Shown piece by piece: positions 5,431 through 58,074 of a stretch of DNA of 64,000 nt. The notes under the pieces are model-generated. The model was not told the origin of the DNA. It ran no database searches and worked only from the letters and a program-made list of their open reading frames with translations. Source of the stretch: an uncultured Azospirillaceae bacterium (lineage in GTDB: Bacteria; Pseudomonadota; Alphaproteobacteria; Rickettsiales; UBA3002). Position 1 is the first letter of the stretch. The number at the start of each line of letters is the position of its first letter. The DNA lies in contig CAYGTO010000003.1 of the NCBI GenBank assembly GCA_964352815.1, forward strand, positions 348-64,347, written 5' to 3'. The position numbers and the translations under genes are program-made.

Positions 5431-7407
5431 TCAGGCTGCGCTTTGCTCTGGCTGGAAGGCGCGTTTTCTAAAGCTTACACGGAAACACGAGCCCTCTCCA
5501 GGCGTCGACTCTACCGTAATCATCCCATCATGCATCGTCACCACCTTCTTACAGATCGCAAGGCCAATACCCGAGCCTGCATATGCATCTTTGTGGTGGA
5601 GGCGTTTAAAAATATCAAAAATCTGTTTCTGATATTCGGGCGCAATGCCGATGCCATTATCTTGGACTAGCACATACCAATATTCTTCATCCTCTTTAGC
5701 AGAGAGGGTGATTACGGGAGTGCTATCGTCTTCCTGATATTTAAGCCCGTTTGCAATAAGGTTCTGAAACAATTGATAGAGCGGAATTTTATAACCCCAA
5801 ATCGTTGGTAAATTGTGGCTAATGATTTGCGCGTTATCTTGCTCCAAACGCGAGACAAGGTTATCACGCACATGTTGTATAACCCCCTCTAATTCGATCT
5901 TCTCTACCTTCTTATCGCCGCGATCGACTGACGAATAGGCAAGAACATCAGAAATAAGAGTCTGACCGCGCTGCGCGCCGTCGAGTAAGAACTTCAAATA
6001 GGCATCTAACTGACGATCTACTTTACCTTGCTCTTTAAGATACGCCGCTATTTTTTGTGAAAAACTACTAATCATACGCAGCGGCTCTTGCAAATCATGC
6101 GAGCAAATATAGGCAAATTGTTCAAGCCGTTCATTCGCCTCGGTCAACTTTGTAATAAGCTTCTCACGCTCAGTGATATCGCGACCAAGGCCAAGAATAT
6201 AGACCTCTCCATCCACCCCCTGAAACCGCAGTCTTTGAGTAAATAAGGTGCGTTTATTCCCATCCGGGAAGACAAGTGTCTCAATTTTACTGGAATAGCC
6301 GCTCGCAAAAGCCAGCTTGTCTTCTGCTAAGAATTCTTCAACGTCTTTTGGGTCATAATCTTCGAATGTCGTGCTACCAATAATATCGTTCCTGAGTTTA
6401 TTAGGATACAGAGCAAAGAAAGCCTCATTCGCCTGAACGATTCGAAATTCTCTGTCTTTTACAAAGATCAAATCAGGGTTATTATCCATCATGAGCTTGA
6501 GGAAATGTTCGGATTCACGAATCTTACGCTCTTGCGTTTTGACTTCCGTGACGTCTGTGTGCGTGCCAATCATCCGAACGGGCTCTCCTTTTTCATCCCA
6601 CTCCACGACCTTCCCTTGGCAAATCACATACACGGTTGGCCCATCCTTATGCCGATATCGCACTTCTTGCGTAAAAGGGTACGCCCCCTTACTTTCGATG
6701 TGCCTTTTGAGATTATCATTTACCAGCACCAAATCCGTTTCAAAGATAAGCGCCTGCCATTCCCTTGGATGATGCGCTTTCTCATCTGGTGCGTAGCCAA
6801 GCATTTCCCAGAAACGCGGCGACATGTATTCATAATCCGTCTTCAAATGCCAATCCCAATAGCCATCATACCCCTGTTCGAGATAAGCTTGGATGGTCTT
6901 TTGGTGTGCCATGATCATCTTTTCCGAGTTTGCCTGTTCGGTGATGTCCTGGAAAATGCCAAACACTGACACAACCTCGCCCGTCTCATCCGCGGTACAT
7001 TCACCCTTCGAATAGACATGGCGCGTTTCACCATCATGGCCGACTAAGCGTGCTTGAAACGCAAAGTCTTTACCTGTTCGGATCGCCGTATCCACCACAT
7101 GGCTAACATATTGAAGATCATCTTGATGGTAGAACTGCAACGCAGAGGTCAGATCGGGTTGATAGGTTTCGGGGTCTACACCATGAATACGATAAATCTC
7201 CCTAGACCAAAAAAGAGTGTTTTCAACCAAATCAATGCGCCAATGCCCTAGCCCCGCAAACTTTTCAACCATTTCGAGGTAAGCGCTATGCGTTTTTATA
7301 TCTGGAATAGTGACTGTTTCGGGCATAATGATAGAGAATGATTGAACTGGAGTATACTCAGAATCGGGGTTGCATACCAGCACTTGTTGCACCATGCTTC
7401 CTATCAA
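5431..7407 (-). CDS. Multi-PAS sensor histidine kinase
   Basis: Several PAS/PAC-like segments. HisKA H-box ICSHDLQEPLRMI. HATPase N/G boxes (NLIANGLKYQ, DNGIGIAPEY, GSGIGLAICKKVV). True start may be the internal Met at 7326. Confidence 0.85.
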   Translation of the reverse strand: MIGSMVQQVLVCNPDSEYTPVQSFSIIMPETVTIPDIKTHSAYLEMVEKFAGLGHWRIDLVENTLFWSREIYRIHGVDPETYQPDLTSALQFYHQDDLQYVSHVVDTAIRTGKDFAFQARLVGHDGETRHVYSKGECTADETGEVVSVFGIFQDITEQANSEKMIMAHQKTIQAYLEQGYDGYWDWHLKTDYEYMSPRFWEMLGYAPDEKAHHPREWQALIFETDLVLVNDNLKRHIESKGAYPFTQEVRYRHKDGPTVYVICQGKVVEWDEKGEPVRMIGTHTDVTEVKTQERKIRESEHFLKLMMDNNPDLIFVKDREFRIVQANEAFFALYPNKLRNDIIGSTTFEDYDPKDVEEFLAEDKLAFASGYSSKIETLVFPDGNKRTLFTQRLRFQGVDGEVYILGLGRDITEREKLITKLTEANERLEQFAYICSHDLQEPLRMISSFSQKIAAYLKEQGKVDRQLDAYLKFLLDGAQRGQTLISDVLAYSSVDRGDKKVEKIELEGVIQHVRDNLVSRLEQDNAQIISHNLPTIWGYKIPLYQLFQNLIANGLKYQEDDSTPVITLSAKEDEEYWYVLVQDNGIGIAPEYQKQIFDIFKRLHHKDAYAGSGIGLAICKKVVTMHDGMITVESTPGEGSCFRVSFRKRAFQPEQSAA

Positions 7408-7446
7408 ACCAATATCAAGGATATATCCATATCGAAAGGGACACTT

Positions 7447-8022
7447 ATGAATATTTTACTCGTCTACGGATCGATGCGGCAAGACCGCCAAGGCATTCGC
7501 CTGGTTCGCTTTTTGACATCGTTGCTCAAAGAGGCAGGACACCAGCCCGTCATTGCCGACAGTATGGAAACGCCTTTGCCCCTGCTTGATCGGATGTATA
7601 AGGAATATGATGCGGGCAACGCCCCTGCGCCGATGCAAGCGCTGGCCGATAAAATTATCGCAGCCGATGGCGTGGTTATGGTCTCAGGTGAGTATAATCA
7701 TGGTATTCCGCCCGCGCTGAAGAACCTGCTCGATCACTTTTTAGAGGAATGGTATCACAAGCCAGCAGGAATCGCCTGTTACTCGGTTGGGCGTTATGGC
7801 GGGGTGCGCGCGGCGATGCAGCTTCGCATGACACTTCCTGAACTTGGCATGCCAACGATTCCTAGCTTGCTGCCGGTCCCGTCCATATCGCAAACGCTCA
7901 ATCAAGACGGCAGCACCGACCAGGGCTGGCTGGTGAAAAGCGCTGAGAAGTTCATTGAAGAACTCACCTGGTGGGCCAGCGCCGCGAAAGAGAAGAAGGA
8001 AAAAGTGGGTACGGCGTACTAA
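7447..8022 (+). CDS. NAD(P)H-dependent FMN reductase family oxidoreductase
   Basis: N-terminus MNILLVYGSMRQDRQG plus the SGEYNHGIPPALKN motif of the flavodoxin-like FMN reductase family. ATG at 7447 chosen over the upstream 7342 start. Confidence 0.75.
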   Translation: MNILLVYGSMRQDRQGIRLVRFLTSLLKEAGHQPVIADSMETPLPLLDRMYKEYDAGNAPAPMQALADKIIAADGVVMVSGEYNHGIPPALKNLLDHFLEEWYHKPAGIACYSVGRYGGVRAAMQLRMTLPELGMPTIPSLLPVPSISQTLNQDGSTDQGWLVKSAEKFIEELTWWASAAKEKKEKVGTAY

Positions 8023-8056
8023 TAGCTTCGCAGAAGTCTTGGGAGGCTGGAGCGTT

Positions 8057-8162
8057 CAGATCAGCTACTATTTTTCTTCAATTTCGTGTACTCAATTTTG
8101 AAAAACAGAGCTTTCTCTGATTTTGCGTTGAAAATGGATATTCAATCCATTTTCATCCGCAA
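8057..8162 (-). ncRNA. Candidate structured RNA element, copy C, immediately 3' of tRNA-Ala
   Basis: Shares TTGCGGATGAAAA-[hairpin 1]-CAACGCAAAATCAGAGAAAGCT-[hairpin 2]-AGCTGATCTG with copies at 12003-12104 and 28167-28268. Hairpin 1 shows compensatory changes. Hairpin 2 has a different sequence but still pairs. Confidence 0.4.
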
Positions 8163-56769: not shown

Positions 56770-56786
56770 TAGTTCATAGTCACGAA

Positions 56787-56898
56787 CGAGGTCAGCAGAC
56801 CGAGCCTTTAGTGCGGTGAGAGCGCCAAAAAATGATTAAATATCATTTTTAGCTCGAACGCGCTTAGGCTCATCGTGCGAAACAGTAGTGCAGCACGG
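56787..56898 (+). repeat. Dispersed element, family 3, with an internal AT-rich hairpin insertion
   Basis: CGAGGTCAGCAGACCGAGCCTTTAGTGCGG...[AAAAAATGATTAAATATCATTTTT]...CGCTTAGGCTCATCGTGCG. Confidence 0.55.
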
Positions 56899-56913
56899 TA
56901 GCGAATGTAAAAA

Positions 56914-58074
56914 CTACGCCGCAACTTTCCCCCGGCTTGCCTCGCCCTCTGCCCAACGCGCGCGCGTCGCCGCGGCATATTCCGCAAGCTCGCCATGACG
57001 AATTGCGTCACGAATCTCGCCCATCAGCTGCTGATAATAGGCCAGATTATGCCAGCTCAACAAAATCGGCCCAAGCATCTCATCCGCCTTAAACAAATGG
57101 TGGAGATAGGCACGTGAATAGTTTTCGCACGGGTAATTATTCTCAAACCGGTTGGTCACGCCGACCGCACGCGGGTCAATCGGCCGCGGGTCATCCGCAT
57201 AGCACGCATTCTTAATGTTAATCGCCCCTTCCGAGGTATAGGCCCGGCCAAGCCGTCCCGAGCGCGTCGGAATCACACAATCAAACATATCAATCCCGCG
57301 CTCGACCGCGCCCAAAATATCATCGGGCTTACCCACCCCCATCAAATAGCGTGGGCGCTCTTTCGGCAGATGCGGCACCGTCATCTCGAGCACCTCAAAC
57401 ATCAGCTCCTGCCCCTCGCCCACCGCGAGCCCGCCCACCGCATAGCCATCAAAGCCGATGCTCTTCAGCGCTTCGGCCGACTCGGTGCGCAAATCTTCAT
57501 AGGTGCTGCCCTGCACAATGCCAAACATGCCATAGCCATCGCGCTTCACAAACGCGTCTTTGCTGCGCTGCGCCCAGCGCATGGAAAGCTCCATCGAAAT
57601 TTTCGCCTCTTCATGCGTAGCGGGATAAGGTGTACATTCATCGAGCACCATGGTGATATTCGAATCGAGCATATGCTGAATCTCGACCGAACGCTCGGGT
57701 GACACCTCATATGTCGTGCCATCAATATGCGATTGAAACGTCACTGCATGTTCTTCCAGCTTACGCAACTTCGAGAGCGACATGACCTGAAACCCGCCGG
57801 AATCCGTCAAGATGGGATGTGGCCAATTCATGAATTGGTGCAGCCCGCCATGCGTGGCGACGCGCTCTGCGCCCGGGCGCAACATGAGGTGATAGGTATT
57901 ACCAAGAATCACATCCGCGCCGAGGCCTTTCACCGCTTCCGGCGTCAACCCCTTCACCGTGCCGCACGTTCCCACCGGCATAAAGGCGGGCGTGCGAATC
58001 GAGCCATGCGCCGTGTGCAACTGCCCGGTCCGCGCGCGGCCATCTTCTTTGTGAATCGCAAAATCAAGTGTCAT
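56914..58074 (-). CDS. tgt: tRNA-guanine transglycosylase (queuine tRNA-ribosyltransferase)
   Basis: [22 protein letters not shown], and Zn site CxCxxC...H (CVIPTR...). Confidence 0.93.

Follow-up and report, generated by a model that had tools for sequence, protein, structure and literature searches.

A C-terminal Ala-Ala is the best-understood degradation signal in bacteria. The only bacterial reader of such a motif known to us is the axial pore of ClpX, which recognizes the ssrA tag as well as the degrons of CtrA and CdnL in Caulobacter; ClpA and FtsH of Escherichia coli also bind ssrA-type ends, to a lesser extent. During ribosome quality control in Bacillus, the alanine tails made by RqcH act as a C-terminal mark that directs proteins to ClpXP, and in eukaryotes C-degron (DesCEND-type) pathways operate through cullin-RING ligases, with the proteome avoiding degron endings. 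Here we analyze a 64-kb stretch of alphaproteobacterial DNA (contig CAYGTO010000003.1; the whole stretch is hereafter called the window, and positions are counted from its first letter) in which an encoded Ala-Ala (-AA) ends many ordinary proteins. The motif and its reader are already known, and what is new is the scale on which the motif occurs and its use on housekeeping enzymes.

Two published studies bear directly on these ends. In Caulobacter, the -AA of CdnL serves ClpXP as a degron both in vivo and in vitro, a change from AA to DD stabilizes the protein, and CdnL is cleared upon starvation (PMC11034885). An unbiased screen in E. coli showed terminal Ala-Ala to be the dominant feature of functional C-terminal degrons and a net positive charge ahead of it to be tolerated; the dipeptide was necessary, not sufficient, and antepenultimate Gly, Pro, His and short polar residues weakened the tag (PMC10862746).

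Open reading frames (ORFs) were called mechanically by taking the longest ORFs greedily with little overlap, which gave 63 ORFs of at least 80 amino acids (aa) and 61 of at least 100 aa. Among the latter, 14 (23%) end in -AA. These are exactly the 14 proteins that had been listed in an earlier reading made from the letters of the window alone (the sequence-only reading), and every listed terminus is present as given. Its estimate that about one protein in 100 should end this way was also sound: alanine makes up 10.4% of residues in the window ORFs and internal Ala-Ala dipeptides occur at a frequency of 1.05%, against which 14 of 61 corresponds to a binomial p of 2.8e-15. The enrichment is sharply placed, with Ala at 30% of positions -1 and 38% of positions -2, and at only 8-13% of positions -3 to -6. 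Enrichment of just these two residues is what a motif read along with the C-terminal carboxylate would show. A further remark, that several more proteins end in A-x, is borne out by Ala at -2 in nine of the 47 ORFs without -AA, although this effect is mild. Full-text literature searches returned no description of an excess of -AA across encoded proteins.

Such an excess could in principle arise at the level of the gene rather than the protein. The sequence-only reading had suggested a termination-context constraint (GCN GCN TAR), and a broader version of this idea holds that two Ala codons before the stop are favored for peptide release, ribosome recycling or stability of the mRNA 3' end, given the unusual stop usage of this DNA. 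The window is indeed poor in TGA and rich in TAG for its guanine-plus-cytosine (GC) content of 52% (TAA 33, TAG 22, TGA 6), and stop usage might yet be connected with the trait. Alphaproteobacterial loci in the lowest tertile of TGA usage have more -AA ends (19% versus about 10%), but the per-locus correlation of -AA with TGA usage, or with GC content, is not significant. A convergent 3' neighbor is found for nine of the 14 -AA genes, which at p = 0.07 is suggestive only.

The gene ends themselves speak against this explanation. The stops that follow -AA (TAA 8, TAG 5, TGA 1) are distributed like those of the other ORFs (25/17/5; chi-square p = 0.92), the +4 base shows no bias, and each of the four Ala codons is used at both positions roughly as often as inside the ORFs. 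Stop codons outside genes show no excess, with two Ala codons preceding 41 of 4688 (0.9%), and among 369 shadow ORFs with 60 codons or more, a single one ends in Ala-Ala. The highly expressed ribosomal proteins S16 and L19 encoded in the window lack -AA. A DNA motif or an origin of the 14 gene ends in repeats or mobile elements was likewise considered and rejected, as the 45 nucleotides (nt) before and 60 nt after the stops share no motif.

A further observation concerns where the proteins reside. Of the 47 window ORFs without a hydrophobic segment, 14 end in -AA, compared with none of the 14 that have one, among them ResB, CcsA, SdhC/D, an M48 peptidase and an L,D-transpeptidase. When all alphaproteobacterial loci are pooled, a test in which recurring orthologs are counted repeatedly, the figures are 83 of 639 versus 5 of 275 (Fisher p = 6e-9). 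Ribosomes and release factors are common to soluble and membrane proteins, and the bias toward soluble proteins therefore points to an event on the finished cytoplasmic protein. We conclude that the -AA excess acts at the amino-acid level and not at the DNA level, and we regard an effect of termination or mRNA-end context, which should depend on the stop, the +4 base or the codons and be independent of cellular location, as highly improbable.

The -AA dipeptide is carried on short extensions of otherwise ordinary proteins. Pfam families can be assigned to ten of the 14 (the PAS kinase, the LepA GTPase fragment, LeuB, Asd, CarD/CdnL, MazG, PyrF, the MetY-type enzyme, pirin and Tgt) and four have none; the Pfam domains stop 3-26 residues short of the C-terminus. 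The impression gained earlier that -AA sits on an extra tail in several housekeeping proteins holds for LeuB, Asd, PyrF and Tgt. Comparison of orthologs makes the additions plain: Asd proteins without a tail stop at NYGL, and those with one end in GLTAKAA or LMPKAAA; LeuD ends in PWL or in PWLFAA and PWLYAA; and most PyrF homologs stop at SL, with tailed forms ending in SLKAEPEAA or SLRAA. The closest homolog of Tgt (81% identical) has 381 aa and ends in GEEDL, compared with 386 aa and ASRGKVAA in the window. In an AlphaFold2 model of PyrF (mean predicted local distance difference test score, pLDDT, of 87), the last helix ends at residue 238, and residues 239-244 are unstructured with a pLDDT of about 49. 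Among 88 collected -AA tails, the sequence upstream of AA is variable, with Lys the commonest residue at both -3 and -4. The antepenultimate residues of the 14 window tails are S, V, M, G, A, K, R, Q, N, E, A, S, P and V.

Orthologs retain the dipeptide to a degree that differs among families. The clearest case is LeuB: of its 119 best homologs (72-86% identity), 55 carry a terminal -AA and 44 a terminal -VA, such that a K/x-[A/V]-A end on a tail of about 10 residues is present in 99 of the 119 alphaproteobacterial homologs; E. coli LeuB (AEGV) lacks the tail. The -AA end is found in 5 of 5 CdnL orthologs from related loci, 15 of 39 Asd, 6 of 38 LeuD, 16 of 119 Tgt and 12 of 119 PyrF sequences, and it is the first or second commonest ending in each of these families and LeuB. 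It also occurs in 5 of 66 distant MetY orthologs, in a MazG ortholog from a relative (L179, ending HKEKAA), and in orthologs of the 444-aa window protein from two other relatives (L004 and L088, ending GCRAA). Among clade orthologs, the Ala codons at -1 are GCA 17, GCC 12, GCG 17 and GCT 16, and all four are also used at -2. A dipeptide that is retained or reacquired as the remainder of its tail diverges, and that is encoded by every available codon, bears the signature of purifying selection on the amino acids.

A different concern is that the window merely happens to hold families that end in -AA throughout Alphaproteobacteria, such as LeuB, Asd, CdnL and MazG, and that the genome is otherwise ordinary. 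Four or five of the 14 proteins do belong to conserved -AA families, and independent Tgt-centered loci of relatives, whose synteny is with the part of the window that is poor in -AA ends, have -AA on just 2 of 78 ORFs. The pyrF-centered locus of a 79%-identical relative keeps -AA on MazG and CdnL and not on PyrF. Comparator loci processed with the same pipeline as the window argue otherwise. Around leuB, -AA occurs on 12 of 54 ORFs in the closest relatives and 62 of 799 in the wider clade, figures inflated by recurring LeuB, Asd and CdnL orthologs. When the non-redundant ORFs of the five closest genomes are pooled, 15 of 112 (13.4%) still end in -AA (p = 2e-12 versus 1.1%), a value that the window exceeds only modestly (p = 0.03). 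The frequency is low in model alphaproteobacterial replicons (pSymB, pAB510a and Paracoccus plasmid 1; 7 of 156) and in mixed metagenome loci from a MetY scan that served as background (only relatives of at most 60% identity, from other lineages; 23 of 688). Encoded -AA is normally rare, being absent from all 277 ORFs of gamma- and deltaproteobacterial and other outgroup loci and all 38 of the E. coli leu region (0 of 315 together), and present in only one of 150 bacteria-wide MazG representatives clustered at 50% identity.

The trait therefore belongs to a family-level group. It is at its strongest in the window genome, fades with distance and is absent outside Alphaproteobacteria in the samples taken. 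The 14 genes are spread over 5-58 kb, and nine or ten of them do not belong to conserved -AA families. Given this 53-kb spread and the 13% in relatives, a pure sampling effect is unlikely, and we consider an ordinary genome viewed through an unusual window to be decidedly improbable. The sequence-only reading had allowed that the tails might prove to be normal for the clade. The same tails do occur across the clade, which makes them a lineage trait, but a frequency of 13-23% is far above that of every comparator and is not ordinary.

What might act on these ends? We tentatively favor the possibility that ClpXP, or an AAA+ protease related to it, reads them as C-terminal tails of the ssrA type, which would probably be degrons of a weak or conditional kind. 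The sequence-only reading had raised degradation and turnover, and this remains the best fit to the anatomy of the motif, the cytoplasmic nature of the tails, their conservation through synonymous change and the CdnL precedent, from which we infer both recognition by ClpXP and an effect on half-life. Under this proposal, selection on the protein would maintain the terminal Ala-Ala as a short linear motif, made up of two alanines and the free alpha-carboxylate, which a cytoplasmic protein presents on a short flexible extension of its folded domain. Such tails would be spread over 13-23% of genes in a family-level group of uncultured alphaproteobacteria, and over about 30% of the soluble proteins of the window; a ClpXP handle would thereby be intrinsic to many biosynthetic enzymes and regulators. 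A large part of the cytoplasmic proteome may thus carry a built-in turnover tag. We expect weak or conditional degrons, since polar or basic residues precede AA in most tails and many of the antepenultimate residues weaken a ClpXP tag by E. coli rules. The tails would then promote slow turnover, or clearance on starvation as with CdnL, and would not be constitutive destruction signals; a weak handle on LeuB, Asd, PyrF, MetY and Tgt would therefore be tolerable.

Comparison with described systems supports parts of this proposal and qualifies others. Like the E. coli ssrA tag and other C-motif 1 signals (LAA-COOH), the 14 ends finish with Ala-Ala and its free carboxylate, and they belong to cytoplasmic proteins whose tails are accessible and unstructured (as judged from the Pfam domain ends, the PyrF model and the lack of hydrophobic segments), and only the last residues matter. 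Unlike the ssrA tag, which is added to stalled chains, they are genome-encoded on a fifth of genes, and their antepenultimate residue is rarely Leu or otherwise hydrophobic and often K, S, G, N or P, such that recognition would be weak. The Caulobacter CdnL and CtrA degrons come from the same class of bacteria, and the CarD/CdnL protein of the window, in which both the CarD_TRCF_RID and CarD_C domains are present, ends in KKQAA, with -AA kept by all five orthologs from related loci. These degrons have been described in Caulobacter for single regulators, whereas the window has -AA also on LeuB, Asd, PyrF, MetY, MazG, Tgt, pirin, a kinase and orphans. There may be some likeness to ClpX C-motif 2 (MuA-like, RRKKAI), reportedly described by Flynn et al. 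2003, in that basic residues directly precede a small or hydrophobic end, although the tails studied here have AA and nothing else as their terminal dipeptide (VA in LeuB) and only a short basic stretch. The alanine tails of RqcH are non-templated, variable in length and placed on failed products; those of the window are templated, exactly two residues long and found on normal proteins. In eukaryotic C-degron pathways, too, which two residues come last is read as a code for stability across the proteome, but the machinery is unrelated, and such endings are avoided there and enriched here.

Several observations weigh against the degron proposal. First, a Leu-like hydrophobic antepenultimate residue with a favorable five-residue context, as in C-motif 1, is not found in the window tails, and by the E. 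coli antepenultimate rules many of the 14 would be poor degrons. Second, LeuB, Asd, PyrF, MetY and Tgt would be expensive proteins to degrade constitutively. Third, neither the window nor any of 54 related loci gave a transfer-messenger RNA (tmRNA) with ARAGORN. Finally, the sample of the host genome amounts to 64 kb, the contrast between soluble and membrane proteins is modest in the window alone, and the pooled contrast draws repeatedly on the same orthologs. The genes clpX, clpP, sspB, ssrA and smpB do not lie within the window.

The sequence-only reading had also mentioned altered degron recognition. It may be that -AA is no degron in this lineage, either through a changed ClpX specificity or tmRNA tag or because polar tails escape, and that it is instead a benign or protective cap favored for solubility or for resistance to carboxypeptidases or to other C-degron pathways. 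Its high frequency seems excessive for a strong degron, the motif is present on housekeeping enzymes, and many of the antepenultimate residues are of the kind that weakens ClpXP recognition in E. coli. However, relaxed avoidance alone predicts about 1% and not 13-23%, literature searches gave no protective role for a C-terminal Ala-Ala, and the lineage has kept the validated CdnL degron without exception (5 of 5). Retention of this end in the window and in all five orthologs suggests, by analogy with Caulobacter, that ClpX still reads -AA in these organisms. A benign or protective cap strikes us as doubtful. The anatomical evidence would serve equally well for another cytoplasmic reader, such as a different AAA+ protease (ClpAP, FtsH or Lon), an adaptor, a chaperone or a domain that binds C-termini for localization or assembly. 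In E. coli, ClpA and FtsH also bind ssrA-type ends, and the window encodes a TPR protein along with other proteins built of repeats, but no candidate reader was identified, and dependence on -AA in Alphaproteobacteria has been shown for ClpX alone. We consider such a reader unlikely.

The 14 proteins are listed in Table 1 together with other features of the window.

Table 1. Proteins of the window that end in Ala-Ala, followed by other features.
Feature	Position	Strand	C-terminal end	Remarks
PAS/HisKA/HATPase sensor kinase	5431-7407	-	PEQSAA-TGA	Pfam HATPase_c match stops at residue 648 of 658
329-aa orphan	9663-10652	-	PHGVAA-TAA	No Pfam or NCBIfam match; no hydrophobic segment
N-terminal GTPase fragment of split lepA	13906-14478	-	KMAA	Stop lies inside sequence that is continuous in LepA of relative L042
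325-aa orphan, leuC-leuD spacer	20735-21712	-	HSLGAA-TAA	Stop overlaps leuC stop by 4 nt; no Pfam or NCBIfam match
LeuB (3-isopropylmalate dehydrogenase)	23516-24625	+	KAAA	13-residue tail past Pfam domain
Asd (aspartate-semialdehyde dehydrogenase)	25723-26763	+	KPREKAA-TAG	
444-aa protein	26765-28099	-	RFGRAA-TAG	Weak NUDIX match, in relatives; convergent with asd, 1 nt apart
CarD/CdnL RNA-polymerase-binding regulator	33007-33510	-	LKKQAA-TAA	Pfam CarD_TRCF_RID and CarD_C
MazG nucleotide pyrophosphohydrolase	34630-35430	+	EKAANAA-TAA	
PyrF (orotidine monophosphate decarboxylase)	39930-40664	+	SLKAEPEAA-TAA	Tail of about 7 residues beyond last helix
MetY-like pyridoxal phosphate enzyme (Cys_Met_Meta_PP)	49998-51308	+	SETKAAA-TAG	
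331-aa His-rich orphan	52369-53364	-	AVTQSAA-TAA	Stop overlaps metA stop by 4 nt; no Pfam or NCBIfam match
Pirin	53389-54153	+	LIDVPAA-TAA	
Tgt (queuine tRNA-ribosyltransferase)	56914-58074	-	KVAA	12-residue tail past Pfam domain
lepA (split)	12312-14478	-		190-aa GTPase fragment and 412-aa C-terminal fragment
lepA insert	about 13551-13905			About 355 nt
76-aa ORF in lepA insert	13663-13893	opposite to lepA		AGGAGG ribosome-binding site; no Pfam or NCBIfam match
leuC-leuD spacer	20735-22432			325-aa orphan (-) and 153-aa orphan (+)
SAM-II (SAM_alpha) riboswitch	49697-49771	+		Rfam RF00521, 37.1 bits versus gathering score 36; upstream of metY-metA pair
tRNA-Ala	8163-8238			ARAGORN and Rfam
tRNA-Lys	54364-54439			ARAGORN and Rfam
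tRNA-Ala(GGC), 90 nt, rejected	48218-48307	-		ARAGORN call inside typA/bipA coding region; no Rfam support, probably a false positive
Repeat proteins (leucine-rich-repeat, ankyrin-repeat, TPR)	8408-9067, 14699-15868, 36362-37363			

The three orphans of about 330 aa might be suspected of forming one paralogous family, an idea that was rejected since they have no mutual similarity and no Pfam or NCBIfam matches. One of them had been labeled antisense to leuC, which is incorrect; the gene sits in the spacer between leuC and leuD and overlaps leuC only by the 4 nt of the stop. The ORF at 19125-20738 over-extends leuC, whose start was called near 19329. The spacer is a hotspot of inserted small genes. 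Homologs of its 153-aa orphan occupy the same position in two relatives (L003 and L005), and the corresponding spacer of a 79%-identical relative (L088 7810-8587) holds a DUF4160/DUF2442 pair.

The lepA gene, whose N-terminal fragment is one of the 14, has been split by its insert with no loss of LepA residues. Beyond the stop of this fragment the frame reads on as PLTGLL, which resembles the PLKALL at the start of the C-terminal fragment, and from this likeness the insert may have produced a target duplication that has since diverged. The split arrangement is identical in an independent Logan contig (L001), and lepA is intact in the relative L042.

Convergent genes in the window are packed very tightly. 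In two pairs the stops overlap by 4 nt as TTAG/CTAA (20735-20738 and 52369-52372), and other convergent pairs lie 0-1 nt apart (26763-26765 and 43669-43670), which leaves no space for intrinsic terminators between such genes.

The host is alphaproteobacterial, and its best named homologs come from metagenome-assembled genomes labeled 'Rickettsiales bacterium', 'Alphaproteobacteria bacterium' or 'Rhodospirillales bacterium'. The closest database relatives are just 81-86% identical (LeuB, Tgt), and the genome is therefore the sole representative of its immediate group. Apart from contig L001, the DNA of the window was also found in four biofilm-metagenome runs; a Logan search with the edge proteins for host sequence past the window yielded short contigs only and nothing new. 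Stop usage in the closest relatives (L003, L086 and L179) is similar to that of the window, compared with 42% TGA in outgroup loci of comparable GC content, and TGA still works as a stop. The repeat proteins of the window, together with VirB8/CagX type IV secretion genes that adjoin tgt in an 81%-identical relative (L086 11815-13396), hint at a host-associated or interaction-rich lifestyle.

Within this family of bacteria, some proteins offer particularly clear material. The K-[AV]-A end of alphaproteobacterial LeuB is a clean, family-specific case that is not described in the literature covered by our full-text searches, and the forms of LeuB, Asd and PyrF with and without a tail constitute pairs for gauging how upstream context tunes degron strength.

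A bolder form of the degron proposal, which we offer as speculation that is probably not correct, is that encoded -AA constitutes a proteome-wide, condition-gated turnover code. The weak ssrA-like handle on about one third of soluble proteins would then allow ClpXP to clear and recycle bulk anabolic proteome upon a change in an adaptor, in (p)ppGpp or in the availability of ClpX. In a mirror-image version, the specificity of ClpX may have shifted, with -AA freed to become a preferred, protective end. If true, a condition-gated turnover code would suit a slow-growing biofilm organism that is unable to dilute its proteins by growth. More generally, a lineage with -AA on 13-23% of its genes would recast both the reach of regulated proteolysis into the housekeeping proteome and the manner in which ClpX avoids or exploits 'self' proteins that resemble those tagged by tmRNA.

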